Below are positions 1 through 9,872 of a stretch of 9,872 nt of DNA, one piece after another. A model generated the notes under the pieces. The model made no database searches. It was not told where the DNA came from and saw only the letters and a list, made by a program, of their open reading frames with translations. The DNA lies in IMG/VR virus record IMGVR_UViG_2663763428_000004. One strand, written 5' to 3'. The position numbers and the translations under genes were made by a program. The DNA is from a virus. Its lineage: Duplodnaviria; Heunggongvirae; Uroviricota; Caudoviricetes. How positions within the stretch are numbered: the stretch's first letter is position 1; each line of letters starts with the position of its first letter.

Positions 1-157
1 TAATCGTGTCCTCTGTGGTGGGTGTGGTGAATGTTATGTGTGGTTTGTGAGTAGTGTCCTGTGCATAGTCAGGTGTGTGTTTATGTAGAACTTAGGCGAC
101 CACCGAGATCTACACATTTATATTCGGCGGCAGCGTCAGATGTGTAGAAGAGAGTAG
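1..157. other. Non-biological library-adapter read-through at contig end (Illumina P5 sequence, 8-nt index-like spacer, degenerate Nextera read-1 / Tn5 mosaic-end sequence)
   Basis: 95-115 ggcgaccaccgagatctacac exactly matches the 3' part of the P5 adapter. 116-123 is an 8-nt index-like spacer. 124-157 tcggcggcagcgtcagatgtgtagaagagagtag matches TCGTCGGCAGCGTCAGATGTGTATAAGAGACAG apart from a few substitutions to G. 1-94 is GT-rich junk typical of reading past the adapter. Confidence 0.8.
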
Positions 158-693
158 GTAATACCCAAATCCTTGCATCTTTTCGATATTTCCTCATCGA
201 AGAAATACATTACTGTATTTGAAATAATGGGAGAAGAAGGTGCTCCAACACTTAGGCGTAACGGGCTATTTCTTCTTAACTTCCAGAAGAAAAGATTTTT
301 AAGAACAAAGATATCAGTATCAGTTAGTTCAACGCCATAATCTTTTAAGACAGATAAAAGATTATGGGGTTTGATACTCATAAAAAAGTTTTTAAAATCC
401 ATTTTAAGCAAATAATCATTATTACAATGCATTAACGCATTAGATCTAATACTTTTATCGGCTTCATAAGCGAAAGCATTTTCATGAACTTTCAAATTAG
501 CCAACATATGATTGATTACTACCTTCTGTAAGGCTTTAACTTGCCTAGCTGGTTGTGCAATTAATCTATATCCATTACCATTTCTTTTGGCGATAGGATA
601 AATTTTATATCTGCGTGGAATAGTAACAATATACCTTTTAGCCTCTTCTTCGCTAAGAAAAAGACCTTTTGAAATATAACTTAGCAACTCCAT
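158..693 (-). CDS. Retron-type reverse transcriptase, 3'-truncated fragment (N-terminal part through motif B; contig ends just before the expected YxDD box)
   Basis: ORF-track entry 136..708. Retron-RT blocks read directly: YIVTIPRRYKIYPIAKRNGNGYRLIAQPARQVKALQ (compare Ec86 RIYTVEKKG..RTIYQPSRELKALQ), motif A LKMDFKNFF, motif B LSVGAPSSPIISN. Preferred start is the ATG at 693-691, preceded by GGAGG; the track start at 708 is a GTG. The last ~7 codons and the stop at 136-157 are adapter-derived. Confidence 0.85.
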
Positions 694-694
694 T

Positions 695-1681
695 CTAAGC
701 CCCTCCACGCACGATATTGATTTGATTTAGAGCATTTTTCCTTTTTTTTGCAGTCTCGTCCATATCTTTAGCATCCATACTTAAGTAAGATTGTCGGATT
801 GCAACCTTAATATTCATAGAATCCTTTATTTTACCACTAGCACTGATACCAAATTTAAGTTTACTCTCTCTATGCCCTCGGGAATAGAAGTAGTCTGTAC
901 CACTGTAAGATAATGATGAGGTTAATTTCATCTTTTCAAGCAAATAAAGTAAACGAGTTATTATTTTTTGTGGCACATCTATATCCATACAGTATAGTGC
1001 CCACTCTATTTCGCTTTTCTTGATTGGTTCTGATAAAAGGATTATTTCGTAAATCAATATAGCTAGGTGCCCAGTATTTTCAGGGTTATATCGCTCCGTT
1101 TTTTTTACACGTTTTAATCTAGAATGAATATCATGGTAGATAAGCTCAACCTCATCATATTTCATACGATCCGATTTTGGCCATGGATAAACTGATACTG
1201 AGGCCTCATCTATTTTTTTAAGATACTCCAAAGGGCCTAAATATATAAAAGAAGATCTAGCAGGAATATTTTTTCGTTCATTTCCCTCAATCTCCTCAAA
1301 TGGTGCGACTACATGCAATTTTTGAGCTAGAGACTTCCTATTAACAAATAATCCAAGCTCAACTAACGAACCTGCACTTTCTAAACAGATAACAACTAAT
1401 GTTGAAATATTTGCAATATCATCTTCAAAGCTCATTAGATCTGAATATGCCCCCTCTCTGAAGTAGTCATGGAAGTTCTCAGCTAAAATAAGAGAATCTG
1501 ACAATTCAGGTTTGTGGCCTGCTACATAAGTAAATATGTGGTCTCGTACACTCATTGGAGTGGAATTTATCGGCCCACCACAAACAAAAATAATAGGAGG
1601 CATGAACTGAACAGTGAAATTTGAATATTTCAAATCTCCAAACTGCTCTTGTAATGCATTCATATATGCAGAATCACTCAC
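695..1681 (-). CDS. Retron effector candidate with nucleoside 2-deoxyribosyltransferase-like (NDT-like) N-terminal domain, RcaT/Ec86-effector-like
   Basis: 328-aa ORF immediately upstream of the RT on the same strand (stop TAG 697-695, RT ATG 693). N-terminal IIFVCGGP followed by ESAGSLVELG, which resembles the NDT catalytic-glutamate motif (compare DVGLGMELGY). AT-rich like the RT. Start is uncertain: GTG at 1681 per the track, or ATG at 1663. Confidence 0.7.
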   Translation of the reverse strand: MSDSAYMNALQEQFGDLKYSNFTVQFMPPIIFVCGGPINSTPMSVRDHIFTYVAGHKPELSDSLILAENFHDYFREGAYSDLMSFEDDIANISTLVVICLESAGSLVELGLFVNRKSLAQKLHVVAPFEEIEGNERKNIPARSSFIYLGPLEYLKKIDEASVSVYPWPKSDRMKYDEVELIYHDIHSRLKRVKKTERYNPENTGHLAILIYEIILLSEPIKKSEIEWALYCMDIDVPQKIITRLLYLLEKMKLTSSLSYSGTDYFYSRGHRESKLKFGISASGKIKDSMNIKVAIRQSYLSMDAKDMDETAKKRKNALNQINIVRGGA

Positions 1682-1689
1682 CCTTGTGA

Positions 1690-1905
1690 CCCCCTACTCC
1701 AAAAGAAAAGGTGGCTAACCAGCCACCTTCGACCCCTTTACCTAAAGGATGCGCTTTAGACTTTCAGCAAGATCCTGAATGGAACGCAGTGGCATGAAGG
1801 ATCTTGCTGAAAGTGCTAAAGCGCAACCCTAAATGTCCACAATAAATTAGTGTCTGGCGAAACGCCCGACAAGGATAAACCTGTTATCCCGCGCGTAAAG
1901 GTAGG
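1690..1905 (-). ncRNA. Candidate retron msr-msd non-coding RNA (structure-based guess; boundaries approximate)
   Basis: Non-coding stretch directly upstream of the effector and RT. Interrupted 26-bp hairpin at 1751-1824 (perfect 16-bp core 1761-1776 / 1798-1813, 21-nt loop). Further hairpins at 1708-1729, 1857-1867 and around 1872-1888. Possible minus-strand promoter: -35 TTGAAA (plus 1931-1936), -10 TATCCT (plus 1909-1914). No a1/a2 repeat pair or branching G identified. Confidence 0.35.
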
Positions 1906-2261
1906 GTTAGGATAGCAAAAGATGCGAGATTTTCAATAAGTAAGCGTACTGGCTGCCAGCAACCACCTAAACCATTGACATTTAAACAAAAATAAATCTA
2001 ACAATTGAAAGCAATACCTTATTGAATACAGCATTCTTATATCTCTCTTGATATCGCAACATCACAATTATCACCGTTAGTGCGGGCAGCCCCGCACGCC
2101 TGCCCGCTTCGCTTAACAGACTGGTTTTCATGCACCTCATTAATCGTCTCAGAAGCCAGCACACAAGGGTTTTCTCGTCAAAAATGGTGCATAAGACTCA
2201 TGCGTTTTCATGCGCCATAGACATGCACTCATGCGCTCTCATGTCAGCCAGGAAAAGGGGG

Positions 2262-2290
2262 TAAAAAATCCCGGTACTGGACCGGGATTA
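2262..2290 (-). terminator. Rho-independent terminator ending the sid-psu-ogr operon
   Basis: Stem tcccggt (2269-2275) / accggga (2281-2287), 5-nt loop, A-run 2263-2268 on plus strand giving a U6 tract after the stem on the minus strand; about 20 nt downstream of the ogr stop. Confidence 0.6.
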
Positions 2291-2308
2291 CGTGGGCGTT
2301 CTTTCTAA

Positions 2309-2581
2309 TCAGACAGGAATCTGCTGACGGCTTGACAGTTTTGACGCGGAGCCATAGCGATTGAGCGTTTTCTGTTGTTTTTCCGGGGATTGTGCTTTGT
2401 CTGATAGCTGTTCATTGCGCCGGGGTTTCATGATTATCTTATCCACACTCTCCAGTGCCGTAAATGTGCAGGAACATTCCAGATTCTGGCACTGATACCA
2501 CGAGCGTTTAACTGACGGAGCTTCATAGGCTGCTGTTCTGGCGTGTGCAACTGTACCGCATTCCGGACATTTAAGTGCCAT
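2309..2581 (-). CDS. ogr: Ogr/Delta-family zinc-finger late-gene transcriptional activator (single Ogr-like domain)
   Basis: MALKCPECGTVAHARTAAYEAPSVKRSWYQCQNLECSCTFTALESV matches the P2 Ogr C-x2-C...C-x4-C block (compare HCPLCQHAAHARTSRY..RYHQCQNVNCSATF as I recall it). Preferred start is ATG 2581-2579 with AGGAG 8 nt upstream; the track start at 2590 is a GTG. Confidence 0.85.
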   Translation of the reverse strand: MALKCPECGTVAHARTAAYEAPSVKRSWYQCQNLECSCTFTALESVDKIIMKPRRNEQLSDKAQSPEKQQKTLNRYGSASKLSSRQQIPV

Positions 2582-2586
2582 TAATA

Positions 2587-3138
2587 TCACTCCTGTATAT
2601 CGTTAATGTCATTCAGGCGTTGCTGAAAACGCAGATGTTGTGCCGGGGTGTAAGAACCCTGGCAATCACGAATCATCCCGGGGTCAGGCATCAAACCGGA
2701 TTCATCCAGGATCTCACGATAATCCCCGGCAATTTCAGGCGGTGTTATTGCCAGCTGGCGAACCAGAGCACTGCGTAATATACGGGACGCAACGTCAACC
2801 CCTCCGCGCCCCTTCAGGAACGGAGCCAGTGCAGATGTCAGGGCTGCCCCATTCGCCTGCATAAAATTGCTGAGAGCGGCTTCTGTGCAGGCCTCCATCA
2901 GTAAATGCTGCGAGTAAATGCATTCGCGCGCAGCACAGTTAATTTGCCATTTCAGCACATCCAGACGTTCCCGCAGTAATTCGAGCTGTCGGGCATAATC
3001 TGCTGGTTTTTCTGTGGCAGCGAGGAGAGATGTTATCTGTTGTTCAACGGCTTTTCGGCTCTCATTATGTCCGGCCCACAGAATACGGGCATTCCGAAAA
3101 CTGGTAAGTGCCTGGTCAGGCGTGCCTCGGGCCGTCAT
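2587..3138 (-). CDS. psu: Psu-like polarity suppression protein (Rho antagonist / capsid decoration protein of P4-type satellites)
   Basis: 183 aa. Blocks KWQINCAARECIYSQ, FMQANGAALTSALAPFL and YTPAQ resemble P4 Psu as I recall it. AGGAG upstream of ATG 3138; ATGA overlap with the preceding gene. Confidence 0.7.
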   Translation of the reverse strand: MTARGTPDQALTSFRNARILWAGHNESRKAVEQQITSLLAATEKPADYARQLELLRERLDVLKWQINCAARECIYSQHLLMEACTEAALSNFMQANGAALTSALAPFLKGRGGVDVASRILRSALVRQLAITPPEIAGDYREILDESGLMPDPGMIRDCQGSYTPAQHLRFQQRLNDINDIQE

Positions 3139-3878
3139 ACTGCTTTCTCCTTCTCAGCAAGTTCCTGACGAACCTTAATTTTATGCATAGCTGCCGGAGA
3201 GAGTTGATTACTGAAATCCAGACGCGCCGCATAATCCGGGGCAACTCCCGCCAGTTTAAACACCGGGTCCTGCTCAGGCATCGCATCGTTAGCCAGAGCC
3301 GGTCTGGTGATATGTTTATGAATAAAGTCTTTCAGCACTGTGTCCGGGTCATTAACTGAATTCACCACACCCACAACGGCACTGGCTTCCCGGCCCATTG
3401 TGGATTTAAGCAGGCTCAGCGTCTGAATAAGCGCTTTTCCATGCGACTGCATAAAATCCTCCCAGATTTGTTTTGCGCGAATATCCACAAGAATGTTATG
3501 CGCGTGGATATACTTTCCGGCTAATTCTGCAGCTTTCTGCGGCAAAAGTGCATTTTCGCTTTCCTGAGCCGCCAGCAGCTCATCAAAATCCTCAAGCGTT
3601 TCTCGTCCCAGCGCAATTTCCGTGCGCAGTTTTTTCATTTCCTTTGAGACCACGCCCTGACTTTCACGAAACAGCGTGCGCCACTCCTCATTCAGTGTGT
3701 TCGTCGTGGCTTCCATTTCAGCGCGACGCTGGCGGATTGTCGCAATATTATCCGCTGCCGCTTTCTGCTGACGACGTGCTTCAAGCCATGCGTTTCTGGC
3801 TGTGTTCATGGTTTCCAGTGCCCGCTGCGTTACAGCCGGAAAAGTGGAAAGGTTGTTATTCACTGCGGTGTTGTTCAT
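3135..3878 (-). CDS. sid: Sid-like capsid size-determination (external scaffold) protein, Sid/Psu family
   Basis: 247 aa, first gene after the iteron region, AGGAG before ATG 3878, translationally coupled to psu. Predicted helical and charged-residue rich. WRTLFRESQGVVSKE and FMQSHGKALIQTL resemble Sid/Psu-family blocks. Assignment rests mainly on synteny with psu and ogr. Confidence 0.55.
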   Translation of the reverse strand: MNNTAVNNNLSTFPAVTQRALETMNTARNAWLEARRQQKAAADNIATIRQRRAEMEATTNTLNEEWRTLFRESQGVVSKEMKKLRTEIALGRETLEDFDELLAAQESENALLPQKAAELAGKYIHAHNILVDIRAKQIWEDFMQSHGKALIQTLSLLKSTMGREASAVVGVVNSVNDPDTVLKDFIHKHITRPALANDAMPEQDPVFKLAGVAPDYAARLDFSNQLSPAAMHKIKVRQELAEKEKAV

Positions 3879-3912
3879 GACTTCTCCTGTCGGGTTGGTT
3901 CGTTACGTCAAT

Positions 3913-3968
3913 TGTGTCGTGGCTGACACAAGCACACTATCGGTGCTCAGTGTGTGGTGGCTGGCACA
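3913..3968 (-). promoter_or_regulatory. Two TGT-N12-ACA dyads (candidate Ogr/Delta-dependent late promoter upstream of sid)
   Basis: tgtgtcgtggctgacaca at 3913-3930 and tgtgtggtggctggcaca at 3951-3968, each TGT-N12-ACA; the distal one is centred about 81 nt upstream of the sid ATG. Confidence 0.45.
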
Positions 3969-4054
3969 ACGGACGCTTGCGGTTATTCAGACGTGGCTAT
4001 GAAAGCCAGCCAGATAAAAATGCCCTCTGTTTCAGTCTGCTTTATGTCCCTGAT

Positions 4055-4252
4055 GCGGTGGAACAGGTGAAACATGTGTTACAGCTTTGTTTTATAAGGC
4101 ATTTATATACACTGCACCGGTGGAACATCGCGGGTAACAAGGTGGAACAGCGGATTGGCTGGCGTTACATCTGTTCCACCTCACTATTTCAGAAGGTGGA
4201 ACAGGTTCAGCCCTGTAAAATACGGTTGTTCCACCTGTTTCACCTGTTACCC
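4055..4252. repeat. Iteron cluster (candidate crr/ori-like replication element bound by the adjacent primase)
   Basis: GGTGGAACAG/T at 4057-4066, 4119-4128, 4141-4150, 4195-4204; inverted (C/T)TGTTCCACC at 4171-4180 and 4226-4235; variants GTGAAACA 4067-4074, TGTTTCACC 4236-4244, GGGTAACA/TGTTACCC 4132-4139 and 4245-4252. Lies in the non-coding gap just after the primase stop. Confidence 0.6.
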
Positions 4253-4278
4253 TTAATAAATAAGACTCACGCAAAGCC

Positions 4279-6951
4279 TTAACCCGGCACCTCGCTGTTG
4301 AAGACATAGAGCCTGCGGGGATTCATCTCTGGCGGGCGAATGGTTGTCTGGAGTTTGCCATCAGTGGAGGGCAGCAGGTATCCACGATCTGCGCACAGAC
4401 GCGCCACCTTGCGCGGGTCAAATCCCCTGCAGATTTCTTTCCAGCCGGACGGCATGACATAGAACGTAGTGACAGCTTCCGTGCCCTGCGCGGTACTGCC
4501 TTTCTCCACCCTGCGCCAGCCCACCATATTGCCGGGGCGGTTGCGCTCGTCATACCAGTCTGCAAAGCGGCTGTACTGATTCGCGGTAAAGAAACTGCGA
4601 ACCTGCTCCAGTGCGGCGATATCTTCCTGATTGGCGGTGTGCCCGCGATCTTTCAGCCATGCGTTCAGGCAGACGCGGGTTGCCCGCAGTGCTTCACCCT
4701 CAGGCCAGCCGGTGATACCCAGACGGGTTGCCAGTTCACCTGCCATCGCCACCAGAGCAAAGCGGTTCACAGCCCGGCCCACCTGATTGCCTGCATCTTT
4801 CGGAGTCAGGGCGGCAGCATATTCCTTCATCAGCGATTTTGCCTGTGCCGTTAGTCCGTTAAGATCAGCGGTCAGTGCTTTCAGCCACTCCCGGAACGGC
4901 GAACCGTAGTAGCAGGACGTGGCCCATTCAAGATGCTCTGCCAGAGCCTTGCCGCTGTCGAAGCCGTGCAGCTCCTCAAAAACGCCAAACTTCCCGGAAT
5001 CGCTGGGGATCTGGATCATCCTGACTTCCATCCCGGCAAAAGTACGCTCACCGGCCTTTGCCGCATGTTCGGTCAGAGACAACTCGCCAGTTGAAAAGAA
5101 CAACAGGCGCCAATGCTTACGGGTACGCAGCTCACCGTCCGTACCGGCACGGCCCTTGCCCTGACCGTTTGCCAGCATGTAGGCGATATTGCCTGCCTCG
5201 CGTCCGTCAACTTCCCGGATCTCATCAAGCATCATGGCGGCATCGTTGCGGCGGCTGGCGCATCCCTCCAGCGCGTTGCCGGTGGCCCGCCATGTCTGCC
5301 AGTAGTCAGGCCCGCCGCAGACGGAGGTTGCCGCTTTCATGGTGGTGGTCTTACCGTCTGTCGATTCCCCTTTGAGGTGGTAGCCGCCGCCGTCCATACC
5401 AACCAGCCGTAACAGTGGTGCAGCAAAGGCCAGGCTGACAGCAAATGCCACGCGGGAGTTGCCGGTACAGTAGCGGGATACATGCTCCCGCCATTCCTCT
5501 GTTGTGCCCGACACGCGGAAATCACGCCCCTGCACGGAAGTGGTCTGGAGAATGACACCCTCTGCACCTTCACCGCTGACCTCATCCTGCAGGACGTAAA
5601 CCTGACCATGCCAGCCAGTACGACTGACGCAGGTCACGCGGCGTTCCGGTTTACACAGTGAGATATATTCCATCAGGCGTGCGCGTGCCTCACCGGTGGT
5701 GCTGATATAAGACAGCCCGTTAACCAGCAATACCCGGCGCAGTTCCTCACCACTGCCGCTCAGCATTTCCATCGGCATCGCCCAGCGGCGACACTCACCC
5801 CACGTATCTTCCCATTCCAGCAGTCGTCCGAAGTTACCGCCATCGGCATCGCAGGTGATTGCCGTCACGCGCAGCGGGCTGCATATTTTGACGTTCTGGA
5901 TCTCCGTCTCACCGTTGCGCTGTACCTGCTTTTCATACCAGAGATATTCCTGGGTAAGACGGAACCCGTGCGGCAGTTGCGTGCGGCCCTCCCCGCACAG
6001 CACCAGACCGTTACGAAAGGCTTCACGGGCGCGGGTAATACCGTGCTCCCGATGGAAGTCATTCCAGTCGGCCTTAATCTCTCCCGGTGGCAGCGTCATC
6101 CAGCCGCCAACAGCTTTTGCCGCCCGTTCAGCAAAGGCTCTGCCGGGATTCTCACCCCCGTCCTGAAAATCGTTATCACCGGCGATGATAATTTTTACCT
6201 CAGGCCAGCGTGCCCGCAGCGACTGCGCCACATTGGGCAGGTTGCCCGCAGATATGGCAGCCACTACGCATCCGGCAGTGAGCTGACTTACCGTCAGCGC
6301 CGTAGCGTAACCTTCGGTAATCACCACCTGTACCGGTGGTTCAGACGGTAACGGGCTGAGCGACACAAACGCGCCTTTCATCGTGCTGCCGGGCAGTATG
6401 CTTTTTTCACCCGTCGGGGCGATAAGCTGTGCACCAGTCACGGCTCCGGTGTTGGTCGTGAGTGGTAACAGCAGGGAACCGGCAGGAAAATCCTTACCGC
6501 TGATATGCTGCACGCTTCCGGTCAGAGAGGCCGGGTATCCGGCGAACCCTTTTCCTGTCAGATAGGCGCTTTCTCCCGTGTGGCTCTCTTTCATCAGCGC
6601 CGCCACGGTAAGACCCATGTCGCGTTTAGGGGCTTTTTTTCTGGCAGGCTTAACAGGCAGTTCCTGCACATCCGGCACATTAAGCACCTGCGCCACCTCC
6701 TGCGCAGCCTTTCTGACGCTGTAACCGGTTACGAGCTTAACCAGATCCAGACCGTCACCATTGCCACACTGGCTGCAGATCCACGTCCCGCGCCCGTCAA
6801 GGTCATCAAGGCGAAAACGATCCTTGCCCCCACATTTCGGGCAGGGACCGTGCCTGCCGTTTTCAGGTACATCAATACGCAGCATCTGGAGAATAACGGG
6901 CCATTTCCCCCGTGCGGCGGCTGAAATCTGCGTAACCGTCTGTATTGTCAT
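4279..6951 (-). CDS. Satellite primase-helicase, P4 alpha-like (N-terminal zinc ribbon, TOPRIM, C-terminal P-loop NTPase)
   Basis: 890 aa. CPKCGG..(x19)..CSQCG zinc ribbon (coded about 6766-6843); TOPRIM-like VVITEGYATA...IIIAGDND; Walker A GESTDGKTT. ATG 6951 with GGGGGA upstream; ATGA overlap with the upstream gene. Confidence 0.9.
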   Translation of the reverse strand: MTIQTVTQISAAARGKWPVILQMLRIDVPENGRHGPCPKCGGKDRFRLDDLDGRGTWICSQCGNGDGLDLVKLVTGYSVRKAAQEVAQVLNVPDVQELPVKPARKKAPKRDMGLTVAALMKESHTGESAYLTGKGFAGYPASLTGSVQHISGKDFPAGSLLLPLTTNTGAVTGAQLIAPTGEKSILPGSTMKGAFVSLSPLPSEPPVQVVITEGYATALTVSQLTAGCVVAAISAGNLPNVAQSLRARWPEVKIIIAGDNDFQDGGENPGRAFAERAAKAVGGWMTLPPGEIKADWNDFHREHGITRAREAFRNGLVLCGEGRTQLPHGFRLTQEYLWYEKQVQRNGETEIQNVKICSPLRVTAITCDADGGNFGRLLEWEDTWGECRRWAMPMEMLSGSGEELRRVLLVNGLSYISTTGEARARLMEYISLCKPERRVTCVSRTGWHGQVYVLQDEVSGEGAEGVILQTTSVQGRDFRVSGTTEEWREHVSRYCTGNSRVAFAVSLAFAAPLLRLVGMDGGGYHLKGESTDGKTTTMKAATSVCGGPDYWQTWRATGNALEGCASRRNDAAMMLDEIREVDGREAGNIAYMLANGQGKGRAGTDGELRTRKHWRLLFFSTGELSLTEHAAKAGERTFAGMEVRMIQIPSDSGKFGVFEELHGFDSGKALAEHLEWATSCYYGSPFREWLKALTADLNGLTAQAKSLMKEYAAALTPKDAGNQVGRAVNRFALVAMAGELATRLGITGWPEGEALRATRVCLNAWLKDRGHTANQEDIAALEQVRSFFTANQYSRFADWYDERNRPGNMVGWRRVEKGSTAQGTEAVTTFYVMPSGWKEICRGFDPRKVARLCADRGYLLPSTDGKLQTTIRPPEMNPRRLYVFNSEVPG

Positions 6952-7331
6952 ACTTCCCCCTGATACAACGTCACACCGGTACTGCAGAAGTCATCAAAGG
7001 CCGCCGGAAGCGTGCGGTACATCTCCGCCATCACTTCACAGCCGCGCGCGGTCAGTACCGGCGGCGCGGTCAGCAGTGACGGCTCCAGCATGTCAGTCAG
7101 CAGTGCCAGCGCGGCAGCGGCGCCCTGTGCTTCGCCGTACTCGTTAATCAGTACGCACTCGATATGCAGCGCAATGGCCATTTCAATACGCTCCACCGTC
7201 AGGCTGTGCGGACCATACTGATCACTGCCAGTTTCGTTCAGCATTTTCTGCCGCCATGCTGAAGCAATAGCCCGCCGGTAAAGCGCGGTGGTCATTTCTG
7301 CCGGGAAAATGGAAACCTGCGGCTGGTTCAT
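6948..7331 (-). CDS. Hypothetical protein (127 aa), translationally coupled upstream of the primase
   Basis: ATG at 7331; ATGA overlaps at both ends; GC content like the satellite core. No motif recognised. Confidence 0.6.
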   Translation of the reverse strand: MNQPQVSIFPAEMTTALYRRAIASAWRQKMLNETGSDQYGPHSLTVERIEMAIALHIECVLINEYGEAQGAAAALALLTDMLEPSLLTAPPVLTARGCEVMAEMYRTLPAAFDDFCSTGVTLYQGEV

Positions 7332-7612
7332 CTGGCACCTCCTTCAATCAGTGCGCAGCTGTGTGCAATATCCGTCAAATCTGCCAGCAGGTACTCCATC
7401 AGCGCGGCGACACCATGCGCACAGCCAGCGTCCAGTGCTCCGGCCTGAGACGGGTATTCAGAAAAGAGAAGCTGGAGCATGTCGCAGGCATTTCTTGCGC
7501 GGGTCAGTTTTCCGAAACTGTCCTCTGACAACCCATAGGCAAAAGCACCGGTATTGTGTTTTTCAGGCAAAGTGTGGCCCTGAGCACCGTTGTGCCCGTT
7601 TGAAATATTCAT
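7328..7612 (-). CDS. Hypothetical protein (94 aa)
   Basis: ATG 7612 with GGAG upstream; ATGA overlap with the next gene. No motif recognised. Its position is analogous to the small regulators upstream of alpha in P4, but that is positional only. Confidence 0.5.
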   Translation of the reverse strand: MNISNGHNGAQGHTLPEKHNTGAFAYGLSEDSFGKLTRARNACDMLQLLFSEYPSQAGALDAGCAHGVAALMEYLLADLTDIAHSCALIEGGAR

Positions 7613-7643
7613 CGTGGATTACTCCGTTTTCAGCGGTATTTTG

Positions 7644-8003
7644 TCAGAGAAACTTTGAATAGTGACCGTCGTCAGGCTCAGCAGAACGCCGTATGCTACG
7701 CTCCCGCCAGCGGATAAATAGCACAGACGGATGCAGTGTCAGCGGGCCGGAACCACTACCGCCAGCAGGAGCTGGTGCAGGCTTCAAGAGCGGTACATCA
7801 AACAGGCGCGTATACCGCTGTTCAAACCATGCCAGAGGGCAGGAAGAAAGCTGGTTGTCGCTGTCATGACGTATCAGCACTTCACAGCTGAATTCAGGAT
7901 TAACCAGCGCCACAGAGGGCGAGGCTTCTATTAATCGGATAATCGTGACCGTCCAGCCACGTTCATGCTGCCAGCGTTCGCCGGGGTGCGGATAATTACG
8001 CAT
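7644..8003 (-). CDS. Hypothetical protein (~119 aa)
   Basis: Track ORF 7644..8033 begins at a TTG; I prefer the ATG at 8003-8001, which is preceded by GGAGGTG. No motif recognised. Confidence 0.5.
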   Translation of the reverse strand: MRNYPHPGERWQHERGWTVTIIRLIEASPSVALVNPEFSCEVLIRHDSDNQLSSCPLAWFEQRYTRLFDVPLLKPAPAPAGGSGSGPLTLHPSVLFIRWRERSIRRSAEPDDGHYSKFL

Positions 8004-8172
8004 GTTCACCTCCGCAGGGAATGCGCCCGGCAAAGCTCAGTACATAGTCCGGGGCAAGTCTGCGCCGCGCTGACCGCTCGTTATCTGCGGTGATCCTTAA
8101 CATCACAGGACGGGCATTGCGTTGACTGCGGTTGATCGCCGCAAATAACCAGGTACACTTCTGTTTAGCCAT
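7996..8172 (-). CDS. Small basic hypothetical protein (58 aa), first gene of the leftward operon
   Basis: ATG at 8172-8170 preceded by GAGG; this is the 3' part of track ORF 7996..8730, whose upstream portion crosses the promoter and operator region and is not credible as coding. Confidence 0.35.
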   Translation of the reverse strand: MAKQKCTWLFAAINRSQRNARPVMLRITADNERSARRRLAPDYVLSFAGRIPCGGEHA

Positions 8173-8247
8173 CTTCGTTACCTCATTTAGCGGATTGGTC
8201 AGAAGCCCGGTTAGTGTTGCTGCACTGTCGGGCTTCGCACTCACAAG

Positions 8248-8340
8248 GTGAATCGCACCTTTAATTTTAAAGCTACCCTTAAGTGAATCGCACTTCAAGC
8301 TTTTTATTATCATTTTTTTTGCATATACTGAATCGCACCT
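8248..8340. promoter_or_regulatory. Three direct repeats (G/C)TGAATCGCAC(C/T)T in the divergent control region, with a candidate plus-strand promoter
   Basis: Repeats at 8248-8260, 8283-8295 and 8328-8340; -10-like TATACT at 8324-8329 abuts the third repeat; weak -35 TTTTTA at 8301-8306. Confidence 0.45.
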
Positions 8341-8359
8341 AACGCGAGGAGATCCAGTA

Positions 8360-8545
8360 ATGGCAACGAGTTCAACTAACAACAAGTCGCAGCAACTTAA
8401 TGCTCGTTTCCCACATGATGTAGTTGCAGAATTAGAAAGCAACCTTGAAGATGGAGAAACGAAAGCGCAATTCATTGTTACGGCTGTAAAAGGCGAGATT
8501 AAACGCCGACAGCGCAGGAAAAATAAGCCAGAGCAAGGTAGTTGA
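8360..8545 (+). CDS. Small ribbon-helix-helix (CopG/Arc-like) DNA-binding protein, candidate repressor
   Basis: 61 aa; GAGGAG 8 nt before the ATG; N-terminal ARFPHDVVAELESNL...AQFIVTAVKGEI fits the RHH strand-helix-helix pattern; basic C-terminal tail. No toxin partner downstream. Confidence 0.55.
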   Translation: MATSSTNNKSQQLNARFPHDVVAELESNLEDGETKAQFIVTAVKGEIKRRQRRKNKPEQGS

Positions 8546-8608
8546 ATAGAGAAGCCAACAGACGTTCTCTCTGTTTCCATGTTAATTTCAGTAAGCGACA
8601 ATATTTTT

Positions 8609-8642
8609 AAGCCCACAAATTCATTATGTCGGGCTTTTTTAT
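8609..8642 (+). terminator. Intrinsic terminator after the RHH gene
   Basis: Stem 8609-8617 / 8627-8636 with one bulge, 9-nt loop, then T6; sits between the convergent RHH and alpA genes. Confidence 0.5.
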
Positions 8643-8872
8643 TAGTGATTTTCATATCGCTCACCACGAGAGGCATATATTTGCTCTTGAATCCAGTGAT
8701 CCACTTCGCTTTCAACAAATGAAATTGCACGAGTTCCTATTTTCACCGGACGGGGAAATGTATTGTTTGCAAGCTGTTTGTAAAGCCATGCCTTGCTACG
8801 CTGAACGCGTCTTAAGACCTCTTTTGCTGAGATAAGAGTCTGATTATCTGAAAAGCTGTTTGCATATTCCAT
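8642..8872 (-). CDS. alpA: AlpA/Vis-family phage transcriptional regulator / excisionase-like protein
   Basis: LISAKEVLRRVQRSKAWLYKQLANNTFPRPVKIGTRAISFVESEVDHWI matches the AlpA helix-turn-helix pattern. Preferred start is ATG 8872 with GGAG upstream; the track start at 8917 is a GTG. Confidence 0.8.
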   Translation of the reverse strand: MEYANSFSDNQTLISAKEVLRRVQRSKAWLYKQLANNTFPRPVKIGTRAISFVESEVDHWIQEQIYASRGERYENH

Positions 8873-9248
8873 CTTGTTACTCCGTGTTCTACTTAAGTTC
8901 ACGGTGACTTTAAACACTGGGAAAAAGTGATTCTAGTGATAATGGAATCTATTAAGACAAATATTGATTCTATTGAAAAACAATAATCTCCACTGAAAAA
9001 AGAAGTAATATTCATATGAAAGAACACGGAGAGAAGGAAATGCACAAAAAAAACAAAATCAATAGAATTCATATGGATAGGATGGAAAATCAAAAAATCA
9101 TATGTCAAAAGGTATTATTGCATTTTAACGATTCATATTACCTAGGAATTAGCACAGTATTACACCATATTACATCGTATTACCCCCTATAGCCCGTTAG
9201 AGCCTCTTGTGGCCCTTCTATTGAGAGATAGCCAGAAAATTAATAAAT

Positions 9249-9851
9249 TTACTCTCCGTATTTTATAATGTCTTTCCCAAGCTTTATTTTCTTATAAAAC
9301 GTAGCTTTTTTAACCCCTTTCATTAGAATCTCATTCTCATTACAAAAAGAAACAATATCATTATATATAACACTATTATCGCTATAACTTACCTTTCCAT
9401 GTCTCTTAAGCAATTCAATTAGTAAATAAATTAATTTACAACTATAATTATCCTCATCATCTTTTCTGTACTGCCCTCTACCATTACTCCTTAATTTTTT
9501 ACCAACTTCATATAATTCACTTCCTCCTAACGTCATTAGAATATCACTCCAATCTTTATTTTTTACCTGTTGTCGTAATGCGTTCTCAATTCTCTCCTTA
9601 ATCTCCACAGGTACAATACCTTCCCTCTGAAAGATATAAGCGGCAGTTAATAATAAGTTCGCCTCCACTTTTTGCGTGGCGGATACGTTTTTATATTCAT
9701 TAATTAATTGTAGATTTCTGGTTATTGCCTTTCTTAATCTAATAACCTCTTTTAATTGAACCTCAGTCAATTCATCATTTTCGGTATCATAGTCAAAACC
9801 ATTCATAGCAAGCGCCACTTCGTGTGGCGTTATGTAAGTTACCCTATTAAA
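9249..9851 (-). CDS. AT-rich hypothetical protein, probably 5'-truncated by the contig end
   Basis: Track ORF 9249..9818 starts at a GTG. Neither that GTG nor the first ATG (9806) has a Shine-Dalgarno sequence, and the frame stays open up to the adapter at 9854. No recognisable motif. Confidence 0.55.
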   Translation of the reverse strand, partial: FNRVTYITPHEVALAMNGFDYDTENDELTEVQLKEVIRLRKAITRNLQLINEYKNVSATQKVEANLLLTAAYIFQREGIVPVEIKERIENALRQQVKNKDWSDILMTLGGSELYEVGKKLRSNGRGQYRKDDEDNYSCKLIYLLIELLKRHGKVSYSDNSVIYNDIVSFCNENEILMKGVKKATFYKKIKLGKDIIKYGE

Positions 9852-9853
9852 AT

Positions 9854-9872
9854 CTGTCTCTTATCAACATCT
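9854..9872. other. Non-biological Nextera mosaic-end remnant at contig end
   Basis: ctgtctcttatcaacatct matches CTGTCTCTTATACACATCT at 17 of 19 positions. Confidence 0.75.

Follow-up and report, generated by a model that had tools for sequence, protein, structure and literature searches.

A locus that is very probably Retron-Eco9 in the cargo hotspot of an Escherichia coli P4-like satellite prophage

Retron-Eco9, whose source strain is E. coli NILS-16 (Bobonis et al., bioRxiv 10.1101/2020.06.22.160168, 10.1101/2020.06.22.160242), and Retron-Sen2 (St85) of Salmonella Typhimurium have been shown to share a tripartite toxin–antitoxin mechanism, with identities of 49% for the reverse transcriptase (RT), 43% for the toxin RcaT, 85% for msr and 58% for msd (Bobonis et al.). 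The same authors found that production of msDNA-Eco9 requires RNase H and ExoVII, and that the toxin is triggered by RecE degradation of the msDNA in Eco9 and by Dam methylation at the stem GATC in Sen2. Eco9 defends against T7, which counters by means of a kinase that phosphorylates RcaT (PMC13645617). As late as 2026 the literature describes the biochemical target of RcaT as unclear, and one paper calls RcaT a nuclease.

Sen2 and Ec73 belong to subtype II-A1 and RT clade 1, whereas Ec86 is assigned to subtype II-A3 and RT clade 9 (Mestre et al.). Retron-Eco1 (Ec86) follows the same logic, its msDNA caging an N-glycosidase effector; filament formation and NAD(P)+ hydrolysis have been shown for Eco1 only. 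Retron-Eco3 (Ec73), on the retronphage phiR73, is the 1991 precedent of a type II-A1 retron on a P4-like element, although it is a different retron from the one described here. In P4-like satellites, the hotspot that carries variable cargo adjoins cos, and a catalogue of its contents lists, as system no. 8 of Table S1B, a 'type-II retron' with weak NDT homology and 141 occurrences (Rousset et al. 2022, PMC9122126).

The DNA studied here, referred to as the window, is a stretch of 9,872 nucleotides. We put the probability at roughly 95% that its positions 152-1936, on the minus strand, are Retron-Eco9, type II-A1 ('St85 family'), carried as hotspot cargo by an E. coli P4-like satellite prophage. 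This anti-phage retron is not new: publications already cover the element, where it sits in P4-like satellites and how it acts. The module comprises the msr-msd ncRNA, an NDT-like effector of 328 aa and a retron RT of which codons 1-181 are present. All of it lies on one strand and is AT-rich (G+C of 0.32 in the RT fragment, 0.354 in the effector and 0.36 in the whole module) against 0.557 for window positions 2309-8033, the satellite core, as the initial annotation had noticed.

The two proteins and the ends of the window

The coding parts of the module and the sequences at the window ends are as follows.

152..693, minus strand: retron RT (rrtT-Eco9), codons 1-181; assigned from RVT_1, RT_II-A, identity to the M217 RT and primer JB391
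695..1681, minus strand: effector/toxin RcaT-Eco9, 328 aa from a GTG start, 322 aa if the ATG at 1663 is used; predicted NDT-like N-terminal and winged-helix C-terminal domains
1..94, no strand: G/T-rich non-genomic sequence beyond the adapter, not organism DNA; no genome match, outside the adapter alignment
95..153, plus strand: Illumina Nextera P5 adapter, 8-nt i5 index and Tn5 mosaic end; local alignment
9854..9872, plus strand: Tn5 mosaic end CTGTCTCTTATCAACATCT, 17 of 19 bases matching CTGTCTCTTATACACATCT

The RT fragment matches Pfam RVT_1 (E 4.5e-16) and PADLOC RT_II-A (E 1.7e-69, profile positions 1-177 of 304), with RT_I-A as the next-best PADLOC model. Its translation contains motif A (LLKMDFKNFF), motif B (SVGAPSSPIISN) and the retron NAxxH box (NALMH, residues 85-89), so that the retron blocks and motifs A and B first read in this fragment stand. 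Over 181 residues it is identical to an intact protein of E. coli M217, after which LLHI-stop replaces RYADD. The M217 RT has 310 aa, with YADD at 183-186 and VTG at 234-236, both past the junction in the window. The retron-specific boxes are therefore all present, NAxxH in the window and YxDD and VTG in the identical intact M217 gene, which supplies the missing 3' end. The full-length RT scores 333.9 bits on NCBIfam NF038233 (St85 RT; cut-off 235), compared to 45.5 for group II intron, 38.4 for Drt2 and 15.2 for AbiA models. The closest solved RTs are all retron RTs, the five closest at 224-285 bits (three of them labelled Ec78 or Ec83), whereas the Ec86 RT, of clade 9 rather than clade 1, reaches 110 bits. 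On these scores the RT is assigned to the St85 RT family (clade 1, common to type I-A). An overlap between the RT gene and the effector gene had been described, but the annotated RT start, ATG at 693, clears the effector stop codon at 695-697; the overlap appeared because the GTG start of the longest open reading frame, at 708, was used.

The effector matches PADLOC NDT_II-A (E 1.8e-87) and exceeds the cut-off of 100 bits of the curated NCBIfam equivalog NF038232, 'retron St85 family effector', with a score of 223.7. It has no family match in the local Pfam-A copy; more than 200 database homologues carry, without exception, the precomputed label PF28093. Its motif L-E-S-A-G-S-L-V-E-L-G confirms the NDT-like motif seen initially, although the spacing is G-x-x-x-E-x-G, one x more than the G-x-x-E-x-G then given. 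Residues E101, S102, G104, V107, E108 and G110 are invariant across 47 homologues. The AF2 model of the 328-aa protein (pLDDT 87.3, pTM 0.88) shows an NDT-like fold in the N-terminal domain and a winged helix in the C-terminal one, and its closest solved structure is the Retron-Eco1 effector, whose chains take the top three Foldseek places (E about 1e-10, best 1.2e-10). Identity in the Foldseek alignments is 17-19%, phmmer also matches the solved Eco1 effector chain (E = 2.2e-6), and the Eco1 active-site motif E-S-x-G-S-x-x-E-L-G is found in the window effector as well. Glu108 aligns to the residue mutated in 8qbl (E106A). From this comparison we infer that the NDT-like domain of RcaT-Eco9 acts through an active site of N-glycosidase type, in which Glu108 would be the counterpart of Eco1 Glu106 and a putative catalytic residue.

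As for the ends, positions 95-153 align to AATGATACGGCGACCACCGAGATCTACAC-N8-TCGTCGGCAGCGTCAGATGTGTATAAGAGACAG over 59 columns with 2 mismatches, positions 1-151 match none of 5,426 complete E. coli genomes, and positions 152-9853 are 99.98% identical to E. coli M217, the genome match ending at 9853. Since window 95-153 is a Nextera P5/Tn5 adapter, the cut of the RT after codon 181 is, as read from the sequence, the adapter junction of a sequenced fragment and not a feature of the locus; the same holds for the missing YxDD box noted at first. Both window ends are untrimmed Nextera/Tn5 adapter, and gene truncations at the edges are therefore not biology.

The msr-msd RNA and its neighbouring sites

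Upstream of the effector, the following non-coding features were located.

1909..1936, minus strand: promoter-like site TTGAAA, 16 nt, TG-TATCCT; consensus scan, weak evidence
1836..1902, minus strand: msr, with a2 at 1901-1895 (CCUUUAC), GCG at 1894-1892 and stem-loops at 1890-1872 and 1871-1851; RF00170 and fold
1751..1824, minus strand: msd long hairpin of 74 nt, template of the msDNA stem; DNA fold and RF02058 alignment
1735..1741, minus strand: a1 inverted repeat GUAAAGG, partner of a2; closing stem of the minimum-energy fold
1697..1730, minus strand: terminator-like hairpin GAAGGTGGCT-GGTT-AGCCACCTT with a T-run after it, lying past a1 and ahead of the start codon of the effector; consensus scan

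Ahead of the effector and on its strand, the stretch thus combines the a1/a2 repeats, a G directly following a2, stem-loops in the msr part and a hairpin in msd. The ncRNA folds with z = -7.3 and none of 200 shuffles folded as well, which, together with the Rfam alignments, bears out the earlier description of a structured non-coding stretch. Its minimum-energy fold recovers the a2/a1 stem, the two msr hairpins and the msd hairpin, and positions 1742-1835 folded as DNA give -32.2 kcal/mol (z = -10.7). The covariance models do align, RF00170 (msr) at 1902-1836 over the full model 1-69 (42.2 bits, E 7.9e-5) and RF02058 at 1831-1695 (55.4 bits, E 1.2e-8), but both scores remain below the gathering scores of 52 and 80, respectively, which fits the divergence between Eco9 and Sen2. 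A genome contig scan gave 32 related loci at 34-47% identity, the Salmonella Sen2 locus not among them. In these relatives the msr gathering score was passed in 12 of the 16 searched (53-75 bits), msr and RF02058 occur in tandem above their gathering scores, and 28 of the 32 keep the msr core ahead of the effector.

The a2 repeat was defined by position, as the 7 nt ahead of the conserved GCG, and forms a stem of 7 bp with a1. With G-U pairing permitted, a partner in the window sequence turned up for 79 of 200 shuffled versions of a2 as well, so that the support for this stem lies in family-wide conservation and not in the window alone: in 25 of 29 related loci the corresponding position holds a full partner, and the pairing occurs there in 6 covarying variants. 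An unconstrained a1/a2 search had returned a G-U-rich helix, which was spurious and was dropped in favour of the positional definition. The branching guanosine is most likely the second G of GCG, G1892, by analogy with Sen2, whose branching-G primer marks that base (Bobonis et al., supplementary Table 5). Both arms of the msd hairpin contain GATC (1803-1800 and 1774-1771); in the msDNA stem of Eco9 this duplex would form a Dam site and could confer Dam sensitivity.

The consensus scan found one promoter-like site, with 1.2 expected in shuffles, and it is weak evidence for transcription that would begin near a2. The terminator-like hairpin has a 10-pair stem and a T-run, and aligns to the 3' hairpin of RF02058. 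In one predicted fold the 5' leader of the ncRNA pairs with the rcaT ribosome-binding region (GGAGUAGGGGG), a pairing absent from the fold of the bounded ncRNA. Related retrons conserve this hairpin as the 3' part of RF02058. It could be speculated that the hairpin at 1730-1707 and the leader pairing together form an attenuator governing the ratio between antitoxin RNA and toxin mRNA, although we regard this as improbable. No discussion of such a layer was met in the cited retron literature, which was read without a dedicated search.

Identity, alternative readings and satellite setting

Identification as Eco9 rests on published primers and on reported serines. All 7 Retron-Eco9 cloning primers (Bobonis et al., supplementary Table 5) map at the expected places, namely the rcaT start and end, +107 of rcaT, the msr start, the RT start and end, and downstream of the RT; JB391 falls on 663-693, at the RT start, and JB370 (msr-Eco9 forward) on 1904-1930. 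Nearly all differences between primers and window are letters lost in a machine-read PDF, JB392 having one substitution as well, and two Sen2 control primers do not map to the window. The reported RcaT-Eco9 serines, Ser155, 181, 254 and 292 (322-aa numbering), are all four serine in the window effector. As the primer texts differ by dropped letters, identity with the NILS-16 allele is near-certain and unproven base by base. Retron-Eco9 has the same order of msr-msd, rcaT and RT, and no biological difference was detected, the window copy having only the first 181 RT codons owing to the adapter junction. Retron-Sen2 also has this gene order and shares with the window the NCBIfam families, the a2-GCG branching context and the tandem of Rfam msr and RF02058. 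The family models and this order sustain the original classification as a type II-A retron (ncRNA, NDT-like effector, RT).

The locus could be imagined as truly decayed, a rearrangement or insertion having removed the RT after codon 181 and left an orphan toxin gene with its ncRNA. The RT frame in the window does end in LLHI-stop after residue 181, with no YxDD downstream. However, what replaces the 3' half of the gene is the P5/i5 adapter with its mosaic end, a second mosaic end closes the far side of the window, and the 9.7 kb between them are nearly identical to a genome with an intact RT; moreover, nothing would neutralise RcaT in a locus lacking the RT, and in the system as published RcaT is then toxic. 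Decay is thus very unlikely. An even slimmer chance is given to an RT of another class (group II intron, DGR, Abi or DRT) next to a structured RNA unrelated to msr-msd, for which the generic RVT_1 domain speaks and nothing more. The St85 retron model is far ahead of the group II intron, Drt2 and AbiA models, the best solved relatives are all retron RTs, and the msr match, the a1/a2 stem and the msd hairpin stand in canonical order.

The initial annotation had also taken the effector for a possible divergent variant close to nothing recognised, and a new NDT-like variant defining a new retron subtype would agree with its low identity to the solved Eco1 effector, the modest phmmer E value and the lack of a local Pfam match. 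This too is hardly credible, as the effector passes the St85-family equivalog model, has its PF28093 homologues, matches a catalogued protein in 321 of 322 residues and is the experimentally tested RcaT-Eco9. That catalogued protein is protein 1 of system no. 8, the single difference being I136 in the catalogue and R here (322-aa numbering); the RT of system no. 8 equals that of the M217 locus in 310 of 310 residues. The retron of the window and system no. 8 also share their location, in P4-like satellites at the locus of variable cargo.

With Retron-Eco9 as the preferred reading, its surroundings agree with the placement first proposed, in the hotspot of a P4-like satellite next to psu/ogr. 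The genes adjoining the cargo are:

2309..3878, minus strand: P4-like late genes, sid-like 3878-3135, psu 3138-2587 and ogr/delta zinc finger 2590-2309; Pfam, phrog_6165 and RefSeq

Pfam matches in this block are Psu (1e-44), Psu (1.8e-9) and Ogr_Delta (1e-15). The P4-type flanks are characterised by Pfam Psu, Ogr_Delta, DUF5375 and Phage_AlpA, and the RefSeq annotation of this element adds an integrase and a TOPRIM/DUF927 protein. A search of the window with the P2/P4 cos 19-mer gave no match with 3 or fewer mismatches, and a BLASTN search (distant mode) of 152-2000 against a phage collection, made for phiR73/Ec73, gave none either. Window 152-2300 occurs at about 100% identity in 154-156 of the 5,426 complete E. 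coli genomes (best match at least 99% identical in 154 records, query coverage at least 80% in 156), and PGAP names both genes "retron St85 family", with the RT intact (310 aa, YADD, VTG). The word retron is absent from a 2026 NAR paper on P2/P4 hotspots.

Proposed mode of action and meaning

In the window, the promoter-like site precedes the msr-msd RNA, whose ends pair in the predicted fold through a2 (CCUUUAC) and a1 (GUAAAGG), and the terminator-like hairpin stands between this RNA and the genes of the toxin (rcaT) and the RT. The RT would copy msd into multicopy single-stranded DNA, and RT and msDNA together would bind RcaT and hold the toxin inactive, as published for Eco9 and Sen2. In these published systems, phage functions that degrade or methylate the msDNA release RcaT, and the freed toxin halts the growth of the infected cell, resulting in abortive infection.

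In practical terms, gene truncations at window edges must not be taken as biology. Precise coordinates are now given for the parts of the Eco9 ncRNA, and the Rfam family named "STnc400 sRNA" can be equated with the msd half of the RNA in St85-type retrons.

The effector, its reverse transcriptase and the cut at the window's left end

As the initial annotation proposed, an effector, a retron reverse transcriptase (RT) and an ncRNA lie on the minus strand in the left part of the window, and the module is AT-rich cargo (G+C 0.36 vs 0.557 in the satellite core). Its two reading frames are the following.

1681 to 695, minus strand: effector ORF, 328 aa
from ATG 693, minus strand, downstream of the effector: RT reading frame, a fragment in the window

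Profile-HMM searches identify the RT as that of a retron and the effector as NDT-like, as had been anticipated. In Pfam the RT fragment hits RVT_1 (E 4.5e-16), and the PADLOC model that fits it best is RT_II-A (E 1.7e-69, covering profile positions 1-177 of 304). The intact RT of E. coli M217, whose locus holds an intact copy of this retron, reaches 333.9 bits with NF038233, the "retron St85 family RNA-directed DNA polymerase" model with its cut-off of 235, vs 45.5 bits with the group II intron model. For the effector, the hits are PADLOC NDT_II-A (E 1.8e-87) and, at 223.7 bits over a cut-off of 100, the NCBIfam equivalog NF038232 ("retron St85 family effector protein"). The NDT-like motif first read in it is present, but its spacing is G-x-x-x-E-x-G (G104-S-L-V-E108-L-G110, invariant across 47 homologues) and not G-x-x-E-x-G. 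The effector start is annotated in two ways (1663-1681, minus strand): GTG 1681, giving 328 aa, is used by PGAP and the primers of Bobonis et al., and ATG 1663, giving 322 aa, by the table of Rousset et al. and, judging by its serine numbering, by the T7 kinase paper.

The RT is indeed cut before its YxDD box in the window, but this truncation is a library adapter artefact. For 181 residues the frame is identical to that of the intact E. coli RT; after these it runs into LLHI-stop in place of the native RYADD. Window 95-153 can be aligned, with two bases mismatching, to the Illumina Nextera P5 adapter followed by an 8-nt index and the Tn5 mosaic end; at this left end (1-153), 94 nt of G/T-rich junk come first. 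Among the complete E. coli genomes searched, 1-151 has no match and 152-2300 matches at 100%. The last 19 bases (9854-9872) are again the Tn5 mosaic end (17/19 bases), and the sequence between both adapters (152-9853) is 99.98% identical to M217. The window therefore seems to be a single tagmentation fragment whose adapters were left untrimmed, and features that reach its ends should not be trusted. The M217 RT is intact (310 aa, YADD 183-186, VTG 234-236); the window is silent on the RT 3' end of its source organism and gives no sign of RT decay.

Identity with Retron-Eco9 and mode of action

This retron is already known at every level: its family, the element itself, its genomic niche and the way it acts. 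Bobonis et al. (10.1101/2020.06.22.160168, 10.1101/2020.06.22.160242) gave the name Retron-Eco9 to a Sen2-like retron found in E. coli NILS-16, and all seven published Eco9 primers map onto the window or M217, at both ends of rcaT, at +107 of rcaT, at the msr start, at both ends of the RT and immediately downstream. Where the primers differ, the cause is nearly always a letter lost in the machine-read PDF, and JB392 has one substitution besides; two Sen2 primers, used as controls, do not map to the window or M217. The four serines of RcaT-Eco9 named in the 2026 T7 kinase study (PMC13645617), Ser155, Ser181, Ser254 and Ser292, are all found in the window effector in the 322-aa numbering from Met7. 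System 8 of the P4-like hotspot (Rousset et al. 2022, PMC9122126, Table S1B; 141 occurrences) comprises two proteins, an RT identical to that of M217 (310/310 residues) and a partner identical to the window effector at 321/322, which, with the primers and serines, disposes of the earlier suggestion of a divergent variant. The same entry notes weak NDT homology for protein 1 and calls the system a type-II retron, so that the anti-phage cargo proposed for this hotspot is a catalogued one; retrons have been known there since phiR73 in 1991 (Rousset et al.). Window 1-2300, searched in complete E. coli genomes, gave 154 records with at least 99% identity and 156 covering at least 80%.

The effector is modelled confidently by AlphaFold2 from a 47-sequence alignment (pLDDT 87.3, pTM 0.88), and its only significant Foldseek matches are three Retron-Eco1 effector chains (E about 1e-10). 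Glu108 aligns by sequence with the residue that is Ala in 8qbl ("inactive effector E106A"), and in RcaT-Eco9 it would work in an N-glycosidase-type site. As modelled, the protein is NDT-like with a C-terminal DNA-binding domain, which is the architecture that Mestre et al. give for type II-A. These authors place Sen2, Vc81 and Ec73 in subtype II-A1, with an RT clade common to type I-A, and the solved relatives of the RT, in which Ec78 and Ec83 rank ahead of Ec86, fit this clade. Family models, fold and ncRNA anatomy support the type II-A reading.

The mechanism is known from publications on Eco9 and Sen2, not from the window. The rcaT-Eco9 gene alone is toxic and the complete retron is non-toxic; msDNA-Eco9 needs RNase H and ExoVII, and antitoxin specificity comes from the RT. 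Retron-Eco9 is triggered by RecE, which in Sen2 acts through msDNA degradation, and RcaT-Eco9 is blocked by RacC. T7 is a target of Eco9 defence, and its kinase counteracts it via RcaT phosphorylation (PMC13645617). In the structurally related Eco1, msDNA cages the N-glycosidase effector and NAD(P)+ is hydrolysed once the msDNA is methylated; in Sen2, the Dam trigger is methylation of GATC in the msDNA stem. The Eco9 msDNA stem also holds a GATC/GATC duplex (1803-1800 and 1774-1771), which could make it sensitive to Dam.

The satellite around the retron

A further AT-rich ORF lies in the satellite.

9250-9853 (18099-18737 in the M217 locus), minus strand: 212-aa ORF, G+C 0.32, between alpA and the satellite integrase, N-terminus beyond the window

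Its match is phrog_30524 (unknown function, E 1e-108), and Pfam, NCBIfam and PADLOC give no hit; it may be a second accessory gene. The late genes at 2309-3878 (minus strand) run sid-like, psu, then ogr/delta; for P4 itself we take the order to be sid, delta, psu. The P2/P4 cos 19-mer, presumably GGCGAGGCGGGGAAAGCAC, is absent from the whole window, 2000-2310 included, with up to 3 mismatches allowed. The P4-like hotspot is described as adjoining cos (Rousset et al., PMC9122126). In M217, the chromosome next to the retron RT, outside the window on its left, holds at 3550-8155 of the locus an integrase pseudogene with a frameshift and an IS3 transposase interrupted by a group II intron (ltrA). 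A reverse transcriptase unrelated to that of the retron thus sits about 2 kb away from it.

The msr-msd RNA and its relatives

The non-coding stretch upstream of the effector, previously described as structured, folds far better than shuffles (z = -7.3). The covariance models match it at full length but below their gathering scores: msr RF00170 at 1902-1836 (minus strand; 42.2 bits, gathering score 52) and RF02058 (STnc400) at 1831-1695 (minus strand; 55.4 bits, gathering score 80). Folded without constraints, the bounded RNA (1903-1733) takes the canonical retron shape.

1936-1909, minus strand: promoter-like site (TTGAAA, 16 nt, TG-TATCCT), weak evidence on its own
1901-1895, minus strand: a2, CCUUUAC, predicted closing stem with a1
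1894-1892, minus strand: GCG triplet directly after a2
1890-1872 and 1871-1851, minus strand: two predicted msr stem-loops
1824-1751, minus strand: predicted 74-nt msd hairpin
1741-1735, minus strand: a1, GUAAAGG, predicted to pair with a2
1730-1697, minus strand: terminator-like hairpin and T-run, between a1 and the effector start

Transcription from the promoter-like site might begin near 1902. The published Sen2 branching-G mutant primer alters the second G of the same GCG (Bobonis et al. primer table), and the Rfam alignment puts the equivalent position at G1892, which is therefore the likely branching guanosine. The msDNA strand (plus, 1742-1835) folds as DNA with z = -10.7. The terminator-like hairpin is kept in relatives, via the RF02058 model, and a fold of a longer stretch pairs the 5' leader of the RNA with the toxin's ribosome-binding region; together they may control the toxin-to-antitoxin ratio.

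Protein searches return more than 200 effector homologues, with identity down to about 40% among the 120 listed, all of which carry PF28093 and many of which are named "retron St85 family effector". A genome scan adds 32 related loci (34-47% identity), 28 of which have an msr core 110-200 nt upstream of the effector and on its strand. With a2 defined by position alone, as the 7 nt preceding the conserved GCG, 25 of the 29 usable loci have a perfect 7-bp partner on the downstream side of the msd hairpin; there are six different a2 sequences, and each is matched by its own complement, which is covariation. When 16 related loci are held against the Rfam gathering scores, msr passes in 12 and RF02058 in 9, and where both pass RF02058 directly follows msr in tandem; the sub-threshold scores of the window therefore reflect divergence, not absence. 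RF02058 lies above its gathering score directly 3' of msr in related loci L005, L008-L010, L013-L016 and L018, at about 3840-3990, and is described in Rfam as 'Gammaproteobacterial sRNA STnc400'. It seems to correspond to one half of the ncRNAs of St85-type retrons, made up of msd, a1 and terminator, and not to an independent sRNA.
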